From contig JBOHUE010000157.1 in NCBI GenBank assembly GCA_050734185.1, positions 1,430 through 65,429 on the forward strand: a stretch of 64,000 nt of DNA. The letters are read 5' to 3'. Source of the stretch: Candidatus Dormibacteria bacterium (GTDB lineage: Bacteria > Chloroflexota > Dormibacteria > Aeolococcales > Aeolococcaceae). The first letter of the stretch is position 1. Every line of letters begins with the position of its first letter. Positions 39,618 to 54,051 of this stretch are shown one piece after another. Position numbers and translations under genes: made by a program. The notes beneath the pieces were generated by a model. The model searched no databases and was not told the origin of the DNA. It saw nothing but the letters and a program-made list of their open reading frames with translations.

Positions 39618-40422
39618 GCGTCAGCCTCCTACGATCCTCGCGTCCGGGCCACGCGGTCGGTCATACCGCAAACGATCGTCCCTGCGTCAGCGCCATCGGG
39701 CCTGGCCCTGAGCTTGTGGCCCGTGCGGACTCGGCGTTAGTGGGCTCGAAGCGTGGTATCGGGAGGGACCATCGCAAGCTTGCGATCTGGGGATCGACTG
39801 AGCGAGTGGAGGATGAGCACGGCCGTACCGCCGCTGGGCCGTCCTGACGGCGCCGGCAAAGCTGCTGTCGTCGATGTCTGGGAGAAACGCACCAGGTTGT
39901 TCAATCCGCTAAACGGACGCCGCTGAAAAGGCCCAGGAGGCTCGGAACGAGGACGAGTCCATGTCACAGACCTTGGCTCGGCGGGCCCTGTCCGCTCGCG
40001 CCGGACAAGCGGTCAGCATCCGCGATGACACGGCACTGGGTGGAACCATCACGTAGTCGTGGGTGGGCCTATCGGCTGGCGCTCGACATTGCTGCGTGAG
40101 CTGGCGGAGCTCTACTCCGGCCTCGACCGTAAATCCGCACCGCCTCCCGCTATAGGAAGAATTCGCTTCTTTTCCATTAGTCGACCCTCCGAGGCGAGAA
40201 TCCATAGCGGGGCGGTCGCAGGGAGACCAGACTCCCTCCACTGGGGGCTGTTTGCGCCGCGCAACAGTGGCCCTGGCAAGCCGGCCCGCCAACCAGGCCA
40301 TCCACACCCAGGCGGGCGCCCAGGACCTGCGCGACCACAAAAGAAGCGTTGCTACACGAACGGGTGTTCGCTTATCCTAGCGGTGCCTAGCATCCAGCTT
40401 TGGAGACGTCACTTTTCTTGCC

Positions 40423-41997
40423 ATGACCCCGCTTCCGCCTAACTACTCGCCAGAACTAATCTTCGGAGTAATCGGACCTGCTGGCGCGGACCTGGGTGGA
40501 GTCAGCACAGCTCTTGAGAATGAGTTGCAGCGATACCGATACAAGGCGAAGATCCTGCTGGTAAGTGACCTTTTTAGGTCGCTTCCTGGCTTTGATCACC
40601 TGGGTGGAATCACTCGACCACGAGGCCTGAACGACTATGAGGTCCTGATGTCGGCGGGCGATGCCATAAGACGTCGAGCGAACCGGAAAGACGCCGCAAT
40701 TCTCATGGCCCTAACTAGCATCATCGATTCGCACGGCGATTGGACGAAGGAGCCGCGAGACACTGCCTGGATTCTGAACTCAATCAAAACTCCTCAGGAA
40801 GCGGACCTACTCAATGTCGTATACGGTGGACGCTGCTGGCTGTTATCAGTGTTTACGAAGCGAGAGAGCCGTATTCAGCAAATAGCCGACGAACTCGCGA
40901 GGCAGCGCGGAGGCACCGTCGGGAGAGTGGAGACTCAAGAAGCGGCCGACCTTGTGGAACGCGACGAGGGCGGTGTCACCATCGACGAATTCGGTCAGAA
41001 CGTCGGGGAAGCCTTCCCGCTCGGCGACTACTTCATAGACGTCGACAGAGACGACTTACAGGCACAGTTGCAAAGGTTTCTTCGCCTTGTCTTTGCTGAC
41101 CCATTTATGACGCCACAGCGCGATGAACAACTCATGTTTGTCGCGTACGGAGCTGCAATGCGTTCGGCATCGCTTTCCAGGCAGGTGGGGGCGGCGATCT
41201 CGGTCGAAGACGGCGCCATCGTCGCCATTGGGGCAAACGAAGTACCTAAGGCCGGAGGTGGTCAATATTGGGCTGAAGACTCCAATGCGAAGGCGACTGA
41301 TGATGGCAGGCAATTTCGACAGGCAGAGGATCTGAGCGAGACAACGAAGGACGCAATGGTCCGCGAGCTGCTGGCCTCAATTGAAGAACTACTCAAGGAT
41401 CCGGTTGATTCAGTTTTCGCGTCGCTTGATCGCAAGAAGCTTCGGGTGTTTGATCTCCTCGAGTTCTATCGTGAGATGCATGCGGAGATGGCCGCGGTCA
41501 TCGACGCGGCTCGCCGAGGGGTGTCAATTCGCGAGGGCACGTTAGCCACTACAACCTTCCCCTGCCACGACTGCGCTAAGCACATTATCGGGGCGGGCAT
41601 TAGACGCGTGCTCTTCATACAGCCATACGTGAAGAGCCGAGCGGCTGAACTCCATCGCGACGCACTAGTTATAGGTCATGAGCGCCCGATAGACGTTATA
41701 TTTCAGGGCAACCCCGTGACCTTCGAGACGTACCGCGGGATAGCCCCCAAACGCTACATCGAAGTCTTTCGAATGCCGGCCCGAAAGGTGGCTGGGACTC
41801 AGGTCACCTGGCGCGAAGGCGTTGCCGAGCCACGCACTGGGTTGCTGGGATCGAAGCTAACGCAGTTTGAGGTTGTAGAGGCAGAGCGTGCTGGACAGTG
41901 GTCAGGAGTTGTGGTGCGCGAGCAAGTTTTGGGAAAGAGACTACCCACAATAATCAAGGCCTTAGAGGAGGCTATCAATGCAGAACGGACCACATGA
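40423..41997 (+). CDS. AvcD/DCD-like anti-phage deoxycytidylate/dCTP deaminase (N-terminal CMP-kinase-like domain with degenerate P-loop + C-terminal zinc deaminase)
   Basis: C-terminal CDA/dCMP-deaminase zinc motifs HAE (aa 353-355, nt about 41479) and PCHDC (aa 380-384) preceded by VGAAISVEDGAIVAIGANEV. N-terminus IFGVIGPAGADLGGVSTAL resembles the cytidylate-kinase P-loop IxGPAGxGKST but lacks the Lys. Lower GC than flanks. Confidence 0.65.
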   Translation: MTPLPPNYSPELIFGVIGPAGADLGGVSTALENELQRYRYKAKILLVSDLFRSLPGFDHLGGITRPRGLNDYEVLMSAGDAIRRRANRKDAAILMALTSIIDSHGDWTKEPRDTAWILNSIKTPQEADLLNVVYGGRCWLLSVFTKRESRIQQIADELARQRGGTVGRVETQEAADLVERDEGGVTIDEFGQNVGEAFPLGDYFIDVDRDDLQAQLQRFLRLVFADPFMTPQRDEQLMFVAYGAAMRSASLSRQVGAAISVEDGAIVAIGANEVPKAGGGQYWAEDSNAKATDDGRQFRQAEDLSETTKDAMVRELLASIEELLKDPVDSVFASLDRKKLRVFDLLEFYREMHAEMAAVIDAARRGVSIREGTLATTTFPCHDCAKHIIGAGIRRVLFIQPYVKSRAAELHRDALVIGHERPIDVIFQGNPVTFETYRGIAPKRYIEVFRMPARKVAGTQVTWREGVAEPRTGLLGSKLTQFEVVEAERAGQWSGVVVREQVLGKRLPTIIKALEEAINAERTT

Positions 41998-42286
41998 GAC
42001 TCTGTCGACCCCGGACGCGGGTGGCGAAGCGGTAACTCGAGTAGGAACGCGAGCGCAACAGGCCAGCGAATCGTGGCCCGATTGGTTGAAACGTGCGGTT
42101 GAGTCACACGAGAAAGCATTCGAGAGTGAGAAGAAGCGCAATGGCGACGGAGATAGCTCGGGAATGGCTTAAATGTTGCCCGTTTGCTTCCCTTACATAG
42201 AGAGACCGCCCCATCGGAGCGCCTTCGTCCGGTTACGCGGCGCGGATCGCTGCTGAGCCGCTAGGCGTGCACCGGGAGAGAGAAGA

Positions 42287-43729
42287 ATGCGATTTAGCGA
42301 GTACTTCGGCGTCGCTGCCGCCGGCGTGGAGTGGTACGACCCAGTACTCACTGAGGACACTCCACTATATGTGGACCCGTTTCTTGTCTACGAAGATGCT
42401 GATCCTTTTTGGGCCAGCTCACATGACATCGTTGTCGAGTTCTTTGCGACCGCGCTGGGGCTGGTCCGCCGTGCGCCCGATAGGCGCCAGTCCGTGCATT
42501 GGCGCAAGGCGGAAAGACTTCTCACGTTCCCGGAACCCAAGGAGTTCGCGCTCGGCCTCGCTATGGGGACACCGGTTGGGTCAGGCACGGGAAGGGAATT
42601 CGCGCATGTCATGGCAGGGGCGTTGGGCGTCGTCGCCGGAAGCGGCATCAGTCAGGTCGAGTTTGTAGAGCTGTTCACGCTCTTTGCGCAGGGGCTGGGC
42701 CCCGATCGGATCAGCGATATCCTCTGTAACATCCTCAAGGCGCAGTTCATCGGCTACACACAGTCGATTGCGAAAGAGTTGGGGATTCAGTTATCGCCGA
42801 TACCGACCCGACACGTCAGGTGGAGCGCTGCGAGCACGCGGTGGGAGGACGGACTGTGTCTTCTGCCGCTAAGCCCGGTCACCAACGCAGGTATCCTCTT
42901 AACGCCGCATCGCTTCCTCAAGAACATCCCAACCGTAACGGCTCTGGGCTTCTGGAATTGGGCTGAGACGAGTGCCAGCCAAATTCTCCGCGACGACCTC
43001 AACTACGACCTCGCCGAGCATCTAAGCCGAAGCGAGCGGGAGAGGCGCGCCCGCGAGCTTGCGCATCTACGGCCGCCCCTGGCGCTTAGCTATCTGCAGC
43101 ACGTGGCGGAGGATGTCGAGCACGCTCCATACAATGTTGAAGACGATCCCGACCTACTAGTTGGTTGGCACGAGGCCGGTCGGCTCGCATTCGATCCTGG
43201 CTTGGCGCCAGATGGAGATCCACCGGAGGCTGACTTCTGCATTTGGGTAGGTGATCTGCTGGATCGCTTTCGGCATGCCGTAGAGGAAACGGATTTGTGG
43301 CGCGTGCTATGGAATGACGCTTTGACGAAGCCTCGAGCTGAGAAGATTGTCCAGGCGGTTGCAGGAAGTGTTCTGGCTCCCTACTGCGAAGCCGCTGATG
43401 TTGACCTATCGCGTGAGGCGAATATCGGTCGCGGCGCGGTCGATTTCAAGTTCGCTCGAGGCTGGAAGAAGCGCGCTCTCACGGAAGCTAAGTTGATATC
43501 AAGCAGTCATTTCGACAAGGGAGCCGGAAAGCAACTACCTCAGTATCTGAAAAGTGAACGCATCGAGTGCGGGTACTATTTGTGTGTTGGATTCTTCAAC
43601 GGCGATTTCGAAGGCGATCGCCTATCCAGAGTTACTGAAACGTGTCGGGTGTTATCCGAGCAAATGGGACGTCCGATAGCTCCAGTCATCGTTGATGCTA
43701 GACCCAAGGAATCCGCCTCAAAGTTGTAG
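42287..43729 (+). CDS. hypothetical protein, possible C-terminal PD-(D/E)xK nuclease fold
   Basis: 480 aa, no recognised family; C-terminal GAVDFKF...ALTEAKLIS fits a D...ExK nuclease core; island codon usage. Confidence 0.5.
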   Translation: MRFSEYFGVAAAGVEWYDPVLTEDTPLYVDPFLVYEDADPFWASSHDIVVEFFATALGLVRRAPDRRQSVHWRKAERLLTFPEPKEFALGLAMGTPVGSGTGREFAHVMAGALGVVAGSGISQVEFVELFTLFAQGLGPDRISDILCNILKAQFIGYTQSIAKELGIQLSPIPTRHVRWSAASTRWEDGLCLLPLSPVTNAGILLTPHRFLKNIPTVTALGFWNWAETSASQILRDDLNYDLAEHLSRSERERRARELAHLRPPLALSYLQHVAEDVEHAPYNVEDDPDLLVGWHEAGRLAFDPGLAPDGDPPEADFCIWVGDLLDRFRHAVEETDLWRVLWNDALTKPRAEKIVQAVAGSVLAPYCEAADVDLSREANIGRGAVDFKFARGWKKRALTEAKLISSSHFDKGAGKQLPQYLKSERIECGYYLCVGFFNGDFEGDRLSRVTETCRVLSEQMGRPIAPVIVDARPKESASKL

Positions 43730-44107: not shown

Positions 44108-45082
44108 ATGACGCTTGACCAGCTTCGGTGGCATAGTTGCGCATACTTCGGGATGGCCGCTCAATTCGCTGACGAGCCGGTGCGCTCCGCCGCCTTTGCA
44201 TTCCTCGCCGACCAGGCGCGGATCCGCGATCAGCCGTGGCCGCCTGTACTTCCACGGTCCCTCCTGCAAGCTGGCTTTGAGTTTGGCGGTCAGCGGGTTC
44301 CGCTCGTCGGCCCGCAGGGGATCTTCAAGCCGGCGGCGCTCCCCGGAACGATCCCACTCAGCATCACCACGGCTCCACCGGTGCTGCATCACGATGCCCC
44401 ATACGACGACGAGTTCGGGTACGGCCACCTCGTCTATCGCTATCGCGGCATCGATCCAAGCCATCACGAGAACGTGGGGCTGCGATCCGCGATCAAAACG
44501 CAGACGCCGCTGATCTACTTCCACGGCATCGTTCCCGGTTCCTACCTCGCGACGTGGCCGGTGTATATCGTGGGAGATCGTCCCGAGCAGTTGGCGTTTA
44601 CGGTTGCTTTCGAGCCGGGCGCTGTCGAACGGCTTCCTGAGGCGCAGCTCATGGAAGAAGACGCGAGGAGGGCATATGCAGAGCGCCTCGTCTTGCAGCG
44701 CCTCCACCAGGCTGGGTTTCGTGAGCGAGTACTGACTGCGTATCGGCGGTGCTGCGCACTGTGTCGGTTACGACACGCACCGTTGCTCGACGCGGCCCAC
44801 ATCATTGCGGACGGCCGGCCACGCGGAGAGCCGGTAGTGAGCAACGGCCTGGCGCTTTGCAAACTCCATCACGCGGCATTCGACGCGAACATCATCGGGA
44901 TCCGGCCGGATCGCGTTGTCGAAGTCAGGCAGGAGGTCCTTAGTGAGACGGATGGCCCGATGCTCGTCCACGGCTTGCAAGAGGTCCACGGGTCGCGGAT
45001 CTGGACGCCGCGTTCACCGGAGCTGCAGCCAACCGCGGCCCGACTTGAGGAACGCTATGAAGAGTTCCAGAAGGCCGGGTGA
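44108..45082 (+). CDS. HNH endonuclease (PF13391-like) with N-terminal reader-like domain; type IV restriction candidate
   Basis: HNH motif CALCRLRHAPLLDAAHIIA...NGLALCKLHHAAFD; N-terminal about 190 aa of unknown or PUA-like fold. Confidence 0.7.
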   Translation: MTLDQLRWHSCAYFGMAAQFADEPVRSAAFAFLADQARIRDQPWPPVLPRSLLQAGFEFGGQRVPLVGPQGIFKPAALPGTIPLSITTAPPVLHHDAPYDDEFGYGHLVYRYRGIDPSHHENVGLRSAIKTQTPLIYFHGIVPGSYLATWPVYIVGDRPEQLAFTVAFEPGAVERLPEAQLMEEDARRAYAERLVLQRLHQAGFRERVLTAYRRCCALCRLRHAPLLDAAHIIADGRPRGEPVVSNGLALCKLHHAAFDANIIGIRPDRVVEVRQEVLSETDGPMLVHGLQEVHGSRIWTPRSPELQPTAARLEERYEEFQKAG

Positions 45083-46020
45083 CAATGGGGCGCGTGTTCG
45101 TCGCCGTCACCGACTACGACTGGTATCGGAAGCTGCGGCAGATCCCCGATGTCGACGAGGTGAACTTCTGGCAGCCCAGCGGTGGTCGGAGATTCGGCGC
45201 AATCGGGGTTGGCGAGATGTTCCTCTTCAAGCTGCACGCGCCCTACAACGTCATCATTGGTGGTGGTTTCTTCGCACGCCACACAACGCTTCCGCTCCAT
45301 TTGGCCTGGGAATTCTTTGGGCTCAAGAATGGCGCAAGCAGCGAGGAGGAAATGGTCGTCAGGGTGGCACGCTACGTTGATAGCCTCAAGGGCGTGTCGG
45401 CGCTGCAGCGGAGCAAACACCCGATCGGCTGCGTGCTCCTCGAGCAACCGTTTTTCTTCCCAGAGACCGAATGGATTCCCCAACCCGCAGATTGGGCCCG
45501 GAACATCGTGCAGGGCCGCGGTTACGACCTCGCCGAGGCGACGGGCCAGAGCCTGCTAACAAGCGTCAGCGAGCGCTTGGCAGGTGAGTCCGTTGTGCTG
45601 CTTGATGAGGCGACCGGCCGGTACGGAGCACCAACTCTGGTGCGCCACCGCCTCGGACAGGGATCGTTCCGCGCTGCCGTGACTGACGCCTACCACCGTC
45701 AATGTGCCGTCACCGGAGACCGGGTCCTCTATGTGCTCGACGCGGCTCACATCCGGCCGTTCGCTCGGGGTGGTGAGCACAGCGTGAACAACGGGTTGCT
45801 TCTTCGGAGCGACCTTCACACGTTGTTCGATCGCGGGTATCTGGCGGTCGACCCACAACATAGGGTCCAGGTGAGTCGCCGGCTGCGCGAGGAGTTCGAC
45901 AACGGGAGAGAGTACTACGCACTGGAAGGCCGTCGCCTGCTCCTGCCGGCGGAGCGCGTCGACCTCCCCGATTCCGGTTTGCTGGCTTGGCATCGGCACG
46001 AGGTCTTCGTCGCTGCGTGA
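45079..46020 (+). CDS. EVE/PUA-like-domain HNH endonuclease (PF13391-like); type IV restriction candidate
   Basis: ATGA overlap with the upstream HNH gene; N-terminal EVE-like FWQPSGG...GEMFLFKLHAPYNVIIGGGFFA; HNH motif CAVTG...LDAAHIRPF...NNGLLLRSDLHTLFDRGYLAV. Confidence 0.7.
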   Translation: MTMGRVFVAVTDYDWYRKLRQIPDVDEVNFWQPSGGRRFGAIGVGEMFLFKLHAPYNVIIGGGFFARHTTLPLHLAWEFFGLKNGASSEEEMVVRVARYVDSLKGVSALQRSKHPIGCVLLEQPFFFPETEWIPQPADWARNIVQGRGYDLAEATGQSLLTSVSERLAGESVVLLDEATGRYGAPTLVRHRLGQGSFRAAVTDAYHRQCAVTGDRVLYVLDAAHIRPFARGGEHSVNNGLLLRSDLHTLFDRGYLAVDPQHRVQVSRRLREEFDNGREYYALEGRRLLLPAERVDLPDSGLLAWHRHEVFVAA

Positions 46021-46102: not shown

Positions 46103-46411
46103 TCACGCTGCCGTCGTAGGCTGATGCTGAGCCTCGAACTCGACTGGCGTCAGCAAAACCAGTGACATATCGTGGCGCTGGCGGTTGTGGAAGATCTCCA
46201 GGTACTCGAAGATCACGCTTGCGAGCTCAACCGGCGTCGACCAACCTGGCCAGGTCGCTTGAGCTGGTGCAACTCCGGCCGTGCGGACCCAGCAAGTGCG
46301 GGGTGTTACGCGTTCTCCAGCGCCGGGAGTGTTTCCACCACCACCTCCGTCGACCGTTGCGTCAGCTTGGCCACTGACCCGCCGCTGAAGTAGCGGCGAC
46401 GAACGGCACAT
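46103..46411 (-). pseudogene. IS3-family transposase (integrase core) C-terminal fragment
   Basis: IFEYLEIFHNRQRHDMSLVLLTPVEFEA matches the conserved C-terminal tail of IS3 OrfB (IFEYIEvFYNRxRRHSxLGYxSPxEFE); no upstream catalytic region present. Confidence 0.5.
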
Positions 46412-46775
46412 TCATCGTGCTGCTCCTTGAGCACGGCACGGACCAAGCGCAGCAACGAGTGGCGGTTGGAAACATGCCGACCACGTCGCAGCGTCGGCTG
46501 ACCTCCTAGTTAAGCCGCTCCGGGAGTTCGTGGACCAGATCACGCGGCGGTGCCCGACCGGGAACCCGTAATACGCGAGCACGTCGTCCTGGGCTGCCCC
46601 GGGGCACGTCACGAGCTTGGCGAAACGCTTCTCGAAGAGCCTGCACACGCGACCAACGGCGGCTTTTGGCTGTGACGCGATCGGGTGGGCAAAGAGGGTG
46701 CGAATCGTGGCGGCCGACATCCGGTGCGCAGCCTTCCGAACGGTGGCCAACGCGTTTCTCATGACGTGCACGGCC
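46412..46775 (-). pseudogene. IS256/Mutator-family transposase internal fragment
   Basis: VHVMRNALATV...LAYYGFPVGHRRVIWSTNSRSGLTRR matches the IS256 conserved block (CxVHxxRN...FPxxHWxxxRTTNxIE); truncated at both ends. Confidence 0.5.
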
Positions 46776-46857
46776 GCTCGGCCACCTGGCCCCGACGAAC
46801 ACCTACCGAGAGACGACCTGTTGACCCTGAACGAGCACTCTGGAAACATCCCGTCCG

Positions 46858-47452
46858 AATGGACATTGACGAAGTTCAACGATCGAGAGCGATCGCACGA
46901 CTTGGCAAGCTTGGCGGGTTCGCTCCCCCGGCTGGCGAAGCCCTCGTCGATGCCGCCATCGCCGGCGCTATCGACCATGCATTTGAGTTGATTAATGGCT
47001 CGGGCGCTGTTCCGACGAGCATGACAACTAGTAAGGCTGACCAGCTGCGTTTCATCTGCGAGCGCGCGGGGCGCCTCTTGTCCCAACGGGAGGTGGAAAT
47101 TCTGTTCCGCGTGACAGCGACAGCAGCACGAACGATCCTGACGACAATGCTCGCCACGTACGAGGAGGCTCTGCGTGAGAAGTTCGTGGCGCGCATGCGT
47201 AGCGATGCGCTGGTAGAACCCAGCGGCAGCGACGATGCTGGACTAAGCTGGACGCTGCGATTTACTGAGTCGGGCACTCTCGATACCGCCTGGAGTGAAG
47301 TCGTTCGACTTGGCATCGCAAGTCTTGGTGACATCAGCTCGTCACGGCGAACACTGACGATTCCTCGTAGCGCCACCATCCAGGGTGAGTCTATTGACGT
47401 TCTCGCCGCGCTTGGGCTGGAGCAACCAGCGACGCGTCCATCAAGGCGGTGA
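46858..47452 (+). CDS. hypothetical protein (island cargo)
   Basis: 198-aa ORF from ATG at 46858 with island-like (lower GC) codon usage; no recognised domain; partly overlaps the upstream part of the IS256-fragment ORF, which is non-homologous. Confidence 0.35.
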
Positions 47453-48314: not shown

Positions 48315-48715
48315 ATGGATGATTGGCTCAGGAGAGTCGGAATGACTGGTCTGGAATGGCAGCGAGAGCCGGGCGTCTATTTCATTTACGACGTAGGGAA
48401 CGATCGCGTGAAGATTGGATATGCGACGGATCCGTACGACCGCATGACGACGCTGAAGACCGGAAATTCACAACAGCTCTTGCTCCTTGCTGTTGCAGTG
48501 CGAGAACGAAACACGATGAGCGTGCTTACCACGCTCAGTTCGCTGGCGATCTGGTCGAGGGGTCGCGCGAGTGGTTCAAGCCCAGTGGGCGGCTGAAGGC
48601 GCTCATCGAAGCCGTACAGCACAATTACGGCAACCATGGCGCCTATCCAGCCCCGTCCGGCGGGTTGCTTCGCTATCGCGTGCGGGGCGGCCCCGACGGA
48701 AGGCAGCGTCGCTAA
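48315..48715 (+). pseudogene. T5orf172 / GIY-YIG-like domain protein, frameshifted
   Basis: N-half in the frame of 48315 (GVYFIYDVGNDRVKIGYATDPYDRMTTLKTGNSQQLLLLAV). C-half (ERAYHAQFAGDLVEGSREWFKPSGRLKALIEAV) continues in the frame of track ORF 48323..48715. Shift lies at about 48490-48510. Confidence 0.55.
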
Positions 48716-49332: not shown

Positions 49333-52300
49333 CTACCCGGCGTTGAGATTACCGTGAGTCTGGCGACGGCCGAACGTCGCGTGATCTCGCTTGCTGGCCG
49401 CCCGCCAGCCAGACACTCGCATCTTCCCCACCGGCGCTTGACGAAGCTGTGGGTCGCGCACCGGATTGAAGACTGCCGTTAATTCGGGAATCCCGCCGTC
49501 GGTGAGGTGCTCAACGACGTAGACCCAGTAGTCGGCACCGAGCTTGGGATCTAGCGCAACCTCCCACTCACTCGTCTCCAGGATGAAAGCGTCCGCTGCG
49601 AGTCCTCCGGACGCTTTCAGTTCGATGTAGCGGCCATCGCTCGCCACGAAATCGGCTCCCACCAAGGGCCCCTGTCGGTGCACGACGAAGCCGCCGCGCG
49701 TTGCCTCGAACATCTCGACGTATGGACGAGCGGCATCCTCGACAGCAGTGTTCGGAGGGATTGGAGTAGCGTCATCGCGGGCTTGACTCGGTCGGTCGGA
49801 CTCCGGGCGCGGCTTCCGGCGACGCGCAGTCCTTGGGAGCTCCCGCACCGCCTGAGACCCCAGAGCGTCATGCTCGGTGCTCTCGATCGACAACAACTCG
49901 AAGGAGGAAGGGTCGGCAAACGTACGCTCCACATGTGATGGTCGCCTAGTTTCCGTGGACGTCCGTGAGGAGCCTGGGGCTGGCCGTGTTGCCTGTCGGA
50001 TCGCATCAATAGCAGCCTCAACATCGTCTGCATCGTCATGATCGCCCTCCGCTCCACCGAAGCCCGCTTCGACTGAGAGCACGCCTACGCTGGTCTCGTA
50101 GCGCTCGATCCGCTTAGCGAAAGCCTCGGGCGATCGGAAAGCTTCTCCAAGCAGCGCCGCCAGCGCGTTCGTCGCGGCGAGTTGTCGCCGCTGAACGAGG
50201 GAACCGAGTATTTCTGCGGCTGTGTGACCGAATACGTCAGCTGATTCCACCCCGACAAGTACTCCGTCTCGAAGCAGCACCCGCGGCTCGGTGTGCAGTC
50301 GAATGTTTCCCTGGTCGGGGAGGCGAAGGACCAATCGGCCTTCAATCTTCAGTGCAGTTGCCGGCTGAAGACCCGCCGCCCCTGCGGCGAGATTGGCAAT
50401 CACGGCGCGATCCCAGCCCCCTTCGGACCGAAGCAACTCTGGCCATGCGCGGACGGCAGCCAGCCATCGACCTCTGAGATCCGCGCTGAGGTCTCCTCCG
50501 GCCACGACCAGCCACTGTTCCTCAAGGACCTCTCCCGGTGTCAACTCCCTGACGGCGAGCCAACGGGCTGCGGTTCCCACGACGGAGGCGTCGTACGTGC
50601 CGGGCAACCACCACGCAAGGTGAGTCTGGAGGGCGGACCGAATCTCCGGCCGGGCAGTCCACCAAGCCTGGTCGGCATCAAGCCAGCCGCGGTCTGTCAG
50701 TGCCGGCACGCCTGCGGGTCCGGCGCTCCCATGCGACACGACAGACTCTAGTCTCACGACCAATTCCCCATAGAAGTGGCGTGCGATCTCATCAACTGGG
50801 CTAGCCGCCATTTCGTAGCGAATGATGTCCGCCATCATCTGCGGATCGAGGTCCGCTCGCACGCCCAACGCGTCCCAAAGTGTGGCGGATCTCGGATAAC
50901 GTCCGGCGAGCTGCCCAACGAACGGGCCGGCGACAGCAGACACGTCCGCTCGCACCGTACGAACCGGTGACCACCATTCGTTGCCGATAAAATCACCCGG
51001 GGGCGGGGCGAAGATGAGGCCGACGCGGCCATTCCCGTGGAACTTAGGCCGGATAAGCAGACGAACCAGATCGGCACGCGCGGAGTTCGGCAGTGCTGTA
51101 AGTTCGCCAGCTATGAGCTCGTAACAAGCCCCGGCTGCGCGCCGACGCTGATCGACTGTGAGTTCTGGAGCTGTATCGCGGAGCCGCTGCAAGGTTGAGA
51201 TAAGGCGGTGCGGCGCGGGTCGTTCGGCGATGCCGATGTCATCGAGCATCGCGTCTGGCTGACTAGGCCAACCTAGGACCGATGCGGCTTCGCTCGCCAA
51301 GGCGAGCTTCGTTGCAGGACTACTGCGAACGAGATCCTTGGGCTTCTGCAAGGATCGGTCCAGCGCGCCGACCCAAGCGATCGACTCGAGCAGTCCCACC
51401 CACGACGACGCTACCTGAGGCGGGTCAGGGATCCAGTTGTAATAGAAATGCGCCGGCGTGGTCTTGCTGGTCGGCGCGATTCGGCCCCAATCCGCCTGGA
51501 GTACAGTCCACAGGGCTCGAGCTCGTCGCCCGCGTTGACGCGTCGACAGTGATGGCCACCGATCTACCAACCACGTGAGGTCGTCGGAAACCCAATCGTC
51601 GATGACACCGGTGGGTCGGGTCATCGCGCTTGAAGGCCAGACAATCCACGGCATCGTCCCGCGTGCGATCCTCGTCACGCGGCGTCCGTCACCGACGGCT
51701 TCGCCGATTCGCGGGCTGATGTAGGGACCAACCAAGCCCCCCAGGAATCGCAAGAACTCGGGAGGGGACATCTGCGCTCGAGCCCCCCGCTGGATACCTC
51801 GACCTCTCGGCACCGGGATCGCGTGAGTGTGGATCTCGTCGACAATCGCTCGGTCAGGCTTTCCGTTTGTCACGGCTTCCATGCCGTCCTGGCTGAGCAT
51901 GGCCGAGCTCAAATATGTTCTTGTGAGCGGTCGAGCGACAAGTCGTCGCGATCGCCCTTGACCAACGACGGCAGCGACGCGGAGACTGTCGCCCAACTGG
52001 CGCGCGATCATGGCTTCGTCTTGAGCGCGATGTGCCCGGCGATAGTCGTTCACGAAGCCTCGCCATCGATGCCTGATGAACTCGACCATCCGAAAGAGCT
52101 GTTCCCGCTGCGATTCATCGATGTGATCAAGCTTCGCTAAGGCGGCCATCCGGGGAACGACCAGGTCTGTGACGACGTGGTATGGGCCAGCCTGAAGCGC
52201 TACTCGGAAGGGCTCCTGCGACAACATATCGCGGACCCGCACGCGCATATCGCCTTGGTCCCGTCCGCGGCGCCGAGCCGCAAGCACACCCGGGGCTGGA

Positions 52301-54051
52301 TCGAGGAACGGATCGACAAGGTGGATCTCAGACTCATTGAAGTACCGCCGCAAGTCGGTGAGAGTTGCGGAGCGTGAGTACCCAAGCAGGTAGCCAGTGA
52401 GCGCAATACGTGGAGAAGGCCGGATCCGACCGCCATGCTCGATTGGTATGCATGCCGTCGATGCGATGGACGCGCGCTCCTCTTGAGTCGCCGTGGTCGC
52501 AACTAGGTCCAGCGCTCGAAGCCACCACCGTCCGTCGCGACGACCGAAACGGAGGTCATCGAGCCTGAGCAGAGCGAGCAGGTCTGGGAGCGCCACTGCG
52601 CGACCTCCCAGGGTGCCAACGACCGAATGCATCCTGCGCTCGTCACTTGACCCAGTGGCTGGTGCAGTTGCGGGAGCGACATACGAGACAGCCGTGCCTG
52701 TCGCCAAATGCAGGTCCGTTTCTCGGATGACTTCACGGAACGCCTCGTCTGGAGCCCACACAGCGGCAGAGGGTACCCGCCAACCCGCGACCGTGCGAAC
52801 GAATCGACGGTCGCGAAGCTGGCTCATCGCTACGTCAAACGCACGGTGCTGGAGGGAGCCGGGAGCAACCTCTGACGCGAGAGGGATGAGTGGCCACGGG
52901 GGTTGACCGGAACGGGATTCAGCTTCTATCGCCTTGGCGATGACATTGCCGATCTCAGTCAACAGCCAGCGATTCCAGTCATTCTCACGGAGTCGTTCGC
53001 GTCCAGGTGTTGGGTCGAAATCGGCTTGCACAAGCCAACGCAGTTCCGATGTGACATCTAGGGGCAGAAAACAGTGCAGCTTCGTGGGGCCGACCGAGCG
53101 ATCAATGGGCCGTGCGAGAACGATTGTCGACGTCTCGCCCGCCTGAACTTCCCGGCCTTGGCGTGCCAATCCGCGCGGGACCGCAGACGTCGAGTACCGA
53201 TATCGTCGCCAAGCCTGTTGCTCACAGCCAGGCCACGATCCGCCGATGCGACACTCGTCCCAGCCGCGCGTCCGGTTTGAAACGCCTGAGCGCCGATAGA
53301 ACTGGCCGCGGCCGCGTCCGGTGACTCGATCAATAATGACGATAGATTCCAGGCTGTCGAGCGTCAACAACAGGTGCAGGAATTCAGGCCTGGTTAAGTC
53401 CTCGATGATCGACGCCAATCGACCACGCTCCGAGGGTCGTACATGCAGCGTGAAATGAGCGCCACGAGGCCGGCGCGGCGGGAGCGGAAGCGGATCGGGA
53501 TAGATCTTGTCCTCAATACGAAAGGCGTACGAGCCTGACTCAATCTGCGGCGAATCAGTCAGCTTAAACACGGACTTGAAACCGATCCCGAAGAATCCGA
53601 TCTTGTTCTTCTTGGGACTATGCCCGGCCGAGCAGATTGCCCATACGTCTGGGGCCGAGAATGCCTGACCATCGTTGTGTACGCGGACCTCATCAGGCTC
53701 AAATAGAAAGAGTATTCGCCGCGCTCCTGCGTCTTCGGCGTTCTGGATCAATTCCAGCGCCCAATGGATGTCGCGCCCGTACAGCTGCTCGGACGCGATC
53801 GACAGGAGCGGACCAAGGTCGGGACTGCCGCGAAATTCTTCTTTTAGCGACCGAACTGCGCCGACGAACGTCTCATTCCAGTTCGGGTCGTCCTCCGGCA
53901 ACGATTCGACAGGGAGCCGCCGAGCCAGGCGCTCGACGGCATTGGCGGCGGCAGCCCGAAGTGAATCCACACCGGGAGAGGGTTCATGGACACCGCGGAT
54001 ACTGGCGCTCTTGGAGCGATTCGGGTCGATCAGCGTGGCGGTGGCCTCCAA
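49333..54051 (-). CDS. giant (1572 aa) sacsin/MORC-like GHKL ATPase with C-terminal DUF3883 / PD-(D/E)xK-like nuclease domain; defense-island protein candidate
   Basis: N-terminal HATPase_c_3-type N-box ELIQNAEDAGA and G-boxes KIGFFGIGFKS; C-terminal GADFVASDGRYIELKASGG...FILETSEWEVA...YWVYVV fits the DUF3883 GYDIxS...IEVKxT...lSxNE pattern. Confidence 0.75.
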   Translation of the reverse strand: MEATATLIDPNRSKSASIRGVHEPSPGVDSLRAAAANAVERLARRLPVESLPEDDPNWNETFVGAVRSLKEEFRGSPDLGPLLSIASEQLYGRDIHWALELIQNAEDAGARRILFLFEPDEVRVHNDGQAFSAPDVWAICSAGHSPKKNKIGFFGIGFKSVFKLTDSPQIESGSYAFRIEDKIYPDPLPLPPRRPRGAHFTLHVRPSERGRLASIIEDLTRPEFLHLLLTLDSLESIVIIDRVTGRGRGQFYRRSGVSNRTRGWDECRIGGSWPGCEQQAWRRYRYSTSAVPRGLARQGREVQAGETSTIVLARPIDRSVGPTKLHCFLPLDVTSELRWLVQADFDPTPGRERLRENDWNRWLLTEIGNVIAKAIEAESRSGQPPWPLIPLASEVAPGSLQHRAFDVAMSQLRDRRFVRTVAGWRVPSAAVWAPDEAFREVIRETDLHLATGTAVSYVAPATAPATGSSDERRMHSVVGTLGGRAVALPDLLALLRLDDLRFGRRDGRWWLRALDLVATTATQEERASIASTACIPIEHGGRIRPSPRIALTGYLLGYSRSATLTDLRRYFNESEIHLVDPFLDPAPGVLAARRRGRDQGDMRVRVRDMLSQEPFRVALQAGPYHVVTDLVVPRMAALAKLDHIDESQREQLFRMVEFIRHRWRGFVNDYRRAHRAQDEAMIARQLGDSLRVAAVVGQGRSRRLVARPLTRTYLSSAMLSQDGMEAVTNGKPDRAIVDEIHTHAIPVPRGRGIQRGARAQMSPPEFLRFLGGLVGPYISPRIGEAVGDGRRVTRIARGTMPWIVWPSSAMTRPTGVIDDWVSDDLTWLVDRWPSLSTRQRGRRARALWTVLQADWGRIAPTSKTTPAHFYYNWIPDPPQVASSWVGLLESIAWVGALDRSLQKPKDLVRSSPATKLALASEAASVLGWPSQPDAMLDDIGIAERPAPHRLISTLQRLRDTAPELTVDQRRRAAGACYELIAGELTALPNSARADLVRLLIRPKFHGNGRVGLIFAPPPGDFIGNEWWSPVRTVRADVSAVAGPFVGQLAGRYPRSATLWDALGVRADLDPQMMADIIRYEMAASPVDEIARHFYGELVVRLESVVSHGSAGPAGVPALTDRGWLDADQAWWTARPEIRSALQTHLAWWLPGTYDASVVGTAARWLAVRELTPGEVLEEQWLVVAGGDLSADLRGRWLAAVRAWPELLRSEGGWDRAVIANLAAGAAGLQPATALKIEGRLVLRLPDQGNIRLHTEPRVLLRDGVLVGVESADVFGHTAAEILGSLVQRRQLAATNALAALLGEAFRSPEAFAKRIERYETSVGVLSVEAGFGGAEGDHDDADDVEAAIDAIRQATRPAPGSSRTSTETRRPSHVERTFADPSSFELLSIESTEHDALGSQAVRELPRTARRRKPRPESDRPSQARDDATPIPPNTAVEDAARPYVEMFEATRGGFVVHRQGPLVGADFVASDGRYIELKASGGLAADAFILETSEWEVALDPKLGADYWVYVVEHLTDGGIPELTAVFNPVRDPQLRQAPVGKMRVSGWRAASKRDHATFGRRQTHGNLNAG

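Follow-up and report, generated by a model that had tools for sequence, protein, structure and literature searches.

The gene for a two-domain homolog of the anti-phage deoxycytidine tri- and monophosphate (dCTP/dCMP) deaminases, the AvcD/DCD family, lies in a 64,000 nucleotide (nt) stretch of a Candidatus Dormibacteria genome (contig JBOHUE010000157.1, positions 1,430 to 65,429; here called the window), and it is overlapped at its 3' end by a 64 amino acid (aa) open reading frame (ORF) belonging to a conserved family with a WPxW core motif. Linkage of the small ORF to this deaminase clade is shown by the comparison of related loci, and the two genes would form a translationally coupled operon. 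By its profile matches the deaminase gene itself is one more, divergent, member of a known defence family; what is new here, judged against the libraries and papers searched, is the tiny unannotated partner gene and an exact LexA-type palindrome. Taken as a whole, the locus is probably best explained as encoding a defence deaminase of this family with a pseudokinase-like N-terminal domain; the small protein may be its regulator and the palindrome may be an SOS operator (Table 1).

Association of a small coding sequence with the deaminase gene

In the locus of the closest relative of the deaminase (L001), an ORF in the same place encodes a protein 43% identical to that encoded by the small ORF of the window (E 1e-16). 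For the scans for further copies, 80 homolog loci were taken from GTDB genomes. In a regular expression scan, 29 of the 72 loci that could be evaluated had an ORF containing WPxW at the stop codon of the deaminase, where about 0.03 per locus would be expected by chance, and these ORFs are roughly 35–110 aa long, mostly 53–70. When a protein profile is used, 48 of the 81 related loci (59%) show the small ORF directly after the deaminase gene, and among approximately 13,000 six-frame segments all of the matches with E < 0.01 directly follow a deaminase gene. The proteins behind this profile had been retrieved from databases with the ORFs of the loci, which makes the sensitivity of the profile, but not its specificity, partly a matter of construction. 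The association is also seen from the other side, with a deaminase directly upstream in 7 of 7 evaluable reverse look-ups that started from the small protein. The start of the small ORF falls anywhere from -32 to +67 relative to the deaminase stop codon, an overlap of 4 nt being the commonest arrangement.

In the source annotations the small proteins are recorded as 'hypothetical protein', and scans of 27 of them against Pfam, NCBIfam, and PADLOC returned scattered chance matches only, and no family. For the 12 annotated plasmid and phage homologs of the deaminase, there is a WPxW ORF only with that of Vibrio nigripulchritudo, where it is unannotated and where the P-loop of the deaminase homolog is also without lysine. 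The enteric members have a small ORF upstream instead, at the place occupied by AvcI, the RNA regulator of AvcD.

The small-protein core is present twice in tandem (RGWL...WPAWQRGLEP) in a 99 aa protein (P0177, L099 88-387), and two further cluster representatives of 121 aa likewise show two matched stretches. In L101 (957-2449) and L102 (382-1874) the deaminase gene is frameshifted at about residues 346–355, near the HAE motif, and the small ORF next to it is undamaged. An orphan regulator accompanying an enzyme gene in decay is a possible reading, as is an error common to the two assemblies. The plasmid homologs of Mycolicibacterium (L094 2897-3070) and Rhodococcus (L093 3127-3387) are followed directly by different, non-WPxW small ORFs, one of which overlaps the deaminase gene by 4 nt; these deaminases may therefore have small 3' partners from more than one family. 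A DUF3892 gene of 92 aa is found about 100–130 nt after the small ORF in seven loci (L021, L042, L055, L086, L088, L090, L100) and possibly makes a three-gene unit of the operon in a Solirubrobacterales-type sub-lineage. It is confined to that sub-lineage and is not present in the window, and was not retained as a third gene of the operon.

A palindrome upstream of the deaminase gene

The sequence CGAAC-N4-GTTCG has a single exact match (10 of 10 positions) in the 64 kb of the window, with 0.11 expected by chance, and this match adjoins a TANNNT hexamer 5' of the deaminase gene. L001 carries CGAAC-AGAC-GTTCG at the same relative place, with the arms kept, a different spacer, and diverged flanking DNA, and it has TATGCT in the place of the -10-like hexamer. 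Indeed, in the alignment of the upstream regions of the window and the closest relative, the palindrome and the -10 element are the only conserved parts. There is about an even chance that the operon would be SOS-inducible, with transcription starting just downstream of a LexA-type operator.

A little under an even chance is given to the alternative, that the palindrome is the operator of another regulator or has arisen by chance. Weighing in that direction, the box is carried by three independent loci only (the window, L001/L002, and L027) and most of the actinobacterial homolog loci do not have it; CGAAC-N4-GTTCG is taken here as the box that LexA recognises in Gram-positive and actinobacterial lineages, and this consensus may not be that of the Dormibacteria. 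The hexamer does not pass a strict sigma-70 scan and there is no good -35 sequence. Boxes with one mismatch elsewhere in the window were counted as chance, since 6 were found and 4.2 were expected. What speaks against the alternative is the exactness of the match, its place directly 5' of a TANNNT hexamer, the constancy of the arms about a variable spacer between the window and L001, and the position of the box in L027, between TTGACT and TAATAT.

In L027 (2688-2962), a Solirubrobacterales homolog, the box is within the spacer of a textbook promoter, between its -35 and -10 elements, the sequence reading TTGACT-CGAACGTATGTTCG-GG-TAATAT. Between this promoter and the deaminase start there is a 52 aa ORF (ATG start, or 69 aa from an upstream TTG) behind a strong Shine-Dalgarno sequence, AGGAGG, in an AvcI-like position, and this locus has no WPxW ORF downstream. 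Upstream of an Acidobacteriota homolog (L037), an element of about 60 nt with TTCGAACCGGAGTTCGGG is repeated 2.3 kb apart, at 241 and 2549.

With regard to an AvcI-like RNA upstream of the deaminase gene, no Rfam match at the gathering threshold was found in the window apart from one tRNA. The candidate promoter with the -10-like hexamer is 45–50 nt from the ATG, and an RNA of the size of AvcI would not fit between the two; AvcI RNAs share no sequence with each other, however, and one could be present here without being recognised. The ORFs in the region from 39.7 to 40.4 kb have no meaningful Pfam match. The sequence from 39620 to 40356, about 700 nt that follow an enoyl-CoA hydratase gene, contains no convincing gene, no Rfam match, and nothing that is conserved in the closest relative, and could mark the left-hand boundary of the island in which the deaminase gene lies.

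Possible role of the small protein

A tentative reading, held with less than even confidence and drawn by analogy, is that the WPxW protein takes the role of AvcI, acting as a labile inhibitor or regulator. Several observations weigh against it. In 41% of the related loci there is no detectable copy of the small ORF. No fusion of the small protein with the deaminase is present among the listed homologs of the deaminase (the best 120 of 612 with E <= 1e-5) or among the best 150 of 277 small-protein clusters. The AlphaFold model of the small protein, which has two helices kinked at W-P and floppy ends, is moderately confident (predicted local distance difference test, pLDDT, of 66).

The main rival to an inhibitor is that the small ORF encodes an activator, a sensor, an adaptor (recognising, for example, a phage component), or an assembly factor, and this is considered rather unlikely. 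The evidence for linkage is silent on the sign of the effect, and co-translation from one mRNA fits an obligate subunit as well as it does an antitoxin. A 2026 review counts the sensor of the deaminase family among the things not yet known, together with the control of the inactive state of these enzymes and their sensing of infection (PMC13276650). Against an activator, the combination of a frameshifted deaminase gene and an intact small ORF in L101 and L102 is more typical of an orphan antitoxin, and the small protein has diverged much more quickly than the enzyme, with 43% versus 76% identity to the closest relative. Fast evolution is frequent among antitoxins. The known regulator of the family, AvcI, is in addition an inhibitor, being labile and lost on transcription shut-off (PMC10511110).

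There is very little likelihood that the small ORF arose by chance or has no function, in which case the conserved signal would come from an RNA or DNA element in the 3'-terminal part of the deaminase gene. The ORF is short and is unannotated in most RefSeq records (e.g. L097), and the modest confidence of its model would be in keeping with such a frame. However, the WPxW codons from 34 loci make use of all four proline codons and leave the x codon free, which argues for selection at the protein level on this motif, and most members of the family are preceded by Shine-Dalgarno-like sequences. The matches of the protein profile span phyla and reach the archaea, with none off target, and an exhaustive profile search found at least 277 small-protein clusters at E <= 0.001, of which the best 150 are all short (39–121 aa), a few are tandemly duplicated, and none is fused to another domain.

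The deaminase gene and its family

The ORF and its HAE and PCHDC motifs are all where the sequence-only reading of this DNA had placed them. An identical sequence in a public metagenome-assembled genome (GCA_975305505.1) has been called by NCBI as a 449 aa product that starts at M76 (P0001). This call (L003, CDIAAJ010000239.1, 10001-11350) omits 75 conserved N-terminal residues, and its contig stops about 630 nt past the deaminase gene, within the island. The 524 aa ORF is the right gene model, because residues 10–75 are conserved across the homologs (P10, E11, G21, L24, L35, Y40). On this alignment, the first strand and the remnant of the P-loop are lost from the product with the 449 aa start.

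The protein matches the PADLOC dCTPase model (PDLC02373) over residues 9–477 (E 1.9e-131) and the NCBIfam anti-phage dCTP deaminase model NF041025 over residues 11–453 (E 4.8e-108), the latter covering profile positions 1–434 of 437. These matches bear out its placement in the AvcD/DCD family of nucleotide-depletion proteins, and the architecture that had been proposed, a kinase-fold N-terminal domain followed in the same protein by a zinc cytidine/dCMP deaminase domain, is indeed what is found. The deaminase Pfam domains are present in all 120 of the listed homologs, nearly all of which are similar in length, and where a name is given it is 'deaminase', 'cytidine deaminase', or 'anti-phage dCTP deaminase'. 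The closest relative (P0002, from soil metagenomes) is 76% identical and the others among those listed are about 35–44% identical; homologs on plasmids carry the annotation 'anti-phage dCTP deaminase'. Some points tell against this placement: with 361.8 bits the protein falls short of the NF041025 equivalog cut-off of 400, for which reason it is regarded as a divergent member, its identity to the annotated plasmid homologs is only 29–36%, and the searchable literature shows no experimentally tested member of this clade.

The deaminase domain matches Pfam dCMP_cyt_deam_1 (PF00383; E 5.6e-15), and its long C-terminal helix lies past the end of the NF041025 match at residue 453. No solved structure of a full-length relative was found. 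It is highly improbable that the protein edits polynucleotides or is a toxin deaminase (MafB19-like or TadA-like), with DNA or RNA rather than free nucleotides as its substrate.

Least probable of all is that the gene encodes a housekeeping dCMP deaminase of the ComEB/Dcd type with an extra N-terminal domain and no role in defence. In favour of this, the catalytic domain belongs to the dCMP deaminase type, with the PF00383 match and a partial match to ComEB (TIGR02571, E 2e-13), and the nearest solved structures are those of metabolic or viral dCMP deaminases. However, the ComEB match reaches 50.6 bits where the cut-off is 219 and spans only residues 350–406, 57 residues of a two-domain protein of 524, where ComEB itself is a single-domain protein of about 150 aa, and the full-length match goes to the defence family; clustering with the housekeeping enzymes, which would have told against the family placement, is thus not what the scores show. 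The homologs are, moreover, patchily distributed on plasmids and phages, and the low-GC island that holds the gene also contains Tiamat, HNH restriction-like genes, and remnants of transposases.

The N-terminal kinase-like domain

The N-terminal domain has a kinase fold and is therefore not the unrelated fold that was the other outcome considered. As had been claimed, there is no lysine at the Walker A position or in its vicinity, residues 18–29 being GPAGADLGGVST (window 40474-40509). In 70 aligned homologs, G21 is conserved in 70, D23 in 52, and L24 in 63, and the canonical Walker A motif GxxxxGK[ST] is present in 0 of the 120 listed. The first beta strand of the AlphaFold model is formed by residues 12–17 and helix 1 begins at L24, and D23-L24 therefore sit at the positions of the canonical Gly-Lys. 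The supposed insertion of 'DLGG' into a GK[ST] motif is not seen; D23 and L24 replace the canonical G and K in this model. The likeness of S28-T29, which are one helical turn into helix 1, to the Walker 'ST' is a coincidence, because these residues are unconserved in the family.

The N-terminal domains of 15 diverse family members, including plasmid homologs annotated as anti-phage dCTP deaminase, were aligned, and 11 of the 15 are without any P-loop lysine. Only the branch containing E. coli, Klebsiella, Photobacterium, and V. coralliilyticus keeps one, as G-[SA]-G-[IV]-K-[STR], where the lysine stands one position later than in the canonical motif. The loss of the lysine is not, then, the peculiarity of this gene that it had been taken for. 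Nor is it family-wide, as the AvcD-like enteric/Vibrio branch retains its shifted lysine; it is a clade-wide and majority state.

The D-Q of VDQIKH in the enteric branch aligns with N119-S120 of this protein, directly before the invariant lysine. In AvcD, activity is abolished by S52K ('Walker A') or by D162A+Q163A ('Walker B') (10.1101/2021.03.31.437871); the AvcD numbering was mapped onto the alignment by inference, through homologs, and not from the V. cholerae sequence itself. By this mapping both of the classical catalytic kinase residues, the Walker A Lys and the Walker B Asp, are absent, because D23-L24 replace G-K and N119-S120 align with D162-Q163 of AvcD. The residues that are invariant in every branch are G21, Y40, K122, E126, Y134, R150, D181, G191-Q192, D202, and R218.

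The resemblance to cytidylate kinase that had been suggested is sustained as far as the kinase fold goes, but within that fold other structures match better than cytidylate kinase. The isolated domain has no match in the PDB at the sequence level, and its assignment is based on the fold and on weak profile evidence. The domain is most likely a non-catalytic regulatory module that binds a nucleotide or another ligand, and not a kinase. The earlier suggestion that it senses rather than phosphorylates nucleotides is strengthened by the fact that the Walker B aspartate is absent as well.

The surrounding region

Between approximately 40 and 56 kb the GC content is 58–63%, compared with 68–70% in the flanks. 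On this composition and its gene content the region is a defence island of the Candidatus Dormibacteria genome, since the low GC is accompanied by TmtA, PDC-M36A-like, and HNH restriction-like genes and by transposase remnants. The TmtA protein contains a Sacsin/HATPase-like domain and NOV_C. NF045808, which the C-terminal halves of the two HNH_2 proteins resemble, is a model for phosphorothioated-DNA-binding restriction endonucleases; the N-terminal halves of the two proteins are unassigned. The PDC-M36A-like protein has no Pfam domain, and its gene, although close to the small ORF, is missing from all of the other deaminase loci and is for this reason regarded as an independent gene of the island rather than as one linked to the deaminase. 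The mobile-element debris also includes a T5orf172/MUG113 fragment, which is weak and below the cut-off.

Table 1. Features of the deaminase locus and its surroundings, in window coordinates
Feature	Position	Strand	Remarks
Gene for two-domain anti-phage dCTP/dCMP deaminase homolog (AvcD/DCD family)	40423..41997	+	524 aa, ATG start
Palindrome CGAAC-GGGT-GTTCG, candidate LexA (SOS) operator	40357..40370		53 nt upstream of start codon
-10-like hexamer TATCCT (TANNNT)	40373..40378	+	2 nt 3' of palindrome; read from sequence
Predicted N-terminal P-loop nucleotide-kinase-fold domain, residues 1-230	40423..41112	+	Without Walker A Lys/Ser-Thr and Walker B Asp
Degenerate P-loop G18-P-A-G21-A-D23-L24	40474..40494	+	Clade motif G-[AP]-x-G-[TSA]-D-L
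S120-I-K122-T-P-Q-E126	40780..40800	+	End of strand 3; K122 and E126 invariant in every branch
Zinc-dependent dCMP/dCTP-type deaminase domain, residues 232-453	41116..41781	+	Helical insertion of ~65 residues (~280-345)
H353-A354-E355	41479..41487	+	Zinc ligand and catalytic glutamate; invariant in 70 homologs
P380-C381-H382-D383-C384	41560..41574	+	Zinc-binding cysteines; P380, C381, H382, C384 invariant in 70 homologs
Long C-terminal helix, residues 482-523	41866..41991	+	AlphaFold secondary structure
Shine-Dalgarno sequence GAGGAGG	41965..41971	+	6 nt before ATG of small ORF, inside end of deaminase gene
Small ORF, WPxW family	41978..42172	+	64 aa; 20-nt overlap with deaminase gene, in a different frame
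W33-P34-D35-W36, core motif of small protein	42074..42085	+	Kink between two predicted helices
PDC-M36A-like protein	42287-43729	+	480 aa; N-terminal 220 residues match PDC-M36A, E 2.9e-22
Two paralogous HNH_2 proteins	44108-45082 and 45079-46020	+	4-nt overlap; C-terminal halves resemble NF045808, below cut-off
Mobile-element debris	46103-47086 and 48315-48596	- and +	rve_2 integrase-core fragment, Mutator-family transposase fragment
TmtA (Tiamat defence)	49333-54051	-	1572 aa; PADLOC E 5.5e-105, nearly full length

Proposed mechanism and its implications

The deaminase gene would be carried on a horizontally acquired defence island. On activation in infection, the C-terminal domain would, by analogy with the known members of the family, deaminate dCTP/dCMP to the deoxyuridine nucleotides dUTP/dUMP, and depletion of the deoxycytidine (dC) nucleotides would starve phage DNA replication. 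The N-terminal domain would bind a nucleotide or other ligand and regulate the enzyme without phosphorylation. The 64 aa WPxW protein would stand in for the AvcI RNA as a labile inhibitor or regulator, so that when the phage shuts off host gene expression the small protein would decay and the deaminase would be released. The most extended form of this proposal, in which WPxW proteins are the regulators or sensors of the dCTP deaminase defence in most environmental bacteria and some archaea, as labile inhibitors replacing the AvcI RNA of the enterobacterial/Vibrio branch, with SOS wiring in addition in this lineage, is doubtful. If it were true, 'single-gene' dCTP deaminase systems would be toxin-antitoxin-like pairs in which the antitoxin switches between RNA and protein.

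In these comparisons the best-studied branch of the deaminase family, that of AvcD and the AvcI RNA, is untypical. The majority of the branches have a kinase-like domain without the catalytic lysine, and there is a large environmental clade in which a conserved, unannotated gene for a small protein is joined directly onto the deaminase gene on its 3' side. That gene is currently overlooked by PADLOC, NCBIfam, and genome annotation, and its product is a concrete candidate for how dCTP deaminases may be restrained and may sense infection.

Comparison with known systems

The solved structures of deaminases that are nearest to the one here, the bifunctional dCMP/dCTP deaminase of PBCV-1 (7fh4) and the dCMP deaminases 2hvv, 1vq2, and 2w4l, do not have the kinase-like N-terminal domain or the helical insertion of about 65 residues, and their roles are metabolic or viral rather than in defence. 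The vertebrate dCTP deaminase CDADC1 (9hfq), a distant relative only, has tandem deaminase domains and no kinase-like domain. The kinase fold of the N-terminal domain is common to the archaeal AdkA-like/UPF0200 proteins (3lw7, 3h0k) and to the nucleoside monophosphate kinases, including cytidylate kinase, but the domain here differs from these in having neither the Walker A Lys/Ser-Thr nor the Walker B Asp.

The DCD 'dCTP deaminase' (PADLOC dCTPase, NF041025) and the deaminase here are alike in their full-length profile matches and in their location within defence islands. DCD was reportedly described by Tal and colleagues in 2022 as a single-gene defence system. It is modelled as one gene, whereas the clade here is a two-gene unit in about 59% of the loci. 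The trigger logic of DCD, for which shut-off of host transcription is the cue and in which phage escape mutants map to inhibitors of host transcription (10.1101/2022.08.27.505566), may be common to the deaminase here.

AvcD (DcdV, VC0175), of the AvcID type III toxin-antitoxin defence system on VSP-1 of Vibrio cholerae, has the same two-domain architecture with HAE...PCxxC, matches the same family models, and is 532 aa in length compared with 524 aa here; homologs of it are also present in V. parahaemolyticus, P. mirabilis, and enterotoxigenic Escherichia coli. By analogy, the presumed effect, depletion of dC nucleotides, would be common to both. The identity of the deaminase here to the enterobacterial and Vibrio plasmid homologs is only about 29–34%, and where that branch has the shifted-lysine P-loop, G-S-G-[IV]-K-[ST], and the D-Q of 'Walker B', the protein here has G-A-D-L-G-G and N119-S120. 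The AvcI RNA is non-coding and 152–174 nt long; its gene directly precedes that of the deaminase on the same strand, the two are co-transcribed, and AvcI RNAs have no sequence in common (10.1101/2021.03.31.437871). Here, unlike in AvcID, the conserved partner is a small protein gene 3' of the deaminase, and upstream conservation is limited to the palindrome and the -10 element.

The small protein has no DNA-binding fold, unlike the antitoxins of type II toxin-antitoxin systems. As in those with the toxin gene first (for example higBA), there is a tight overlap, often of 4 nt, between the gene of a potentially toxic enzyme and that of a small, fast-evolving, partly disordered partner, and an orphan small ORF is found beside a decayed enzyme gene in L101 and L102.

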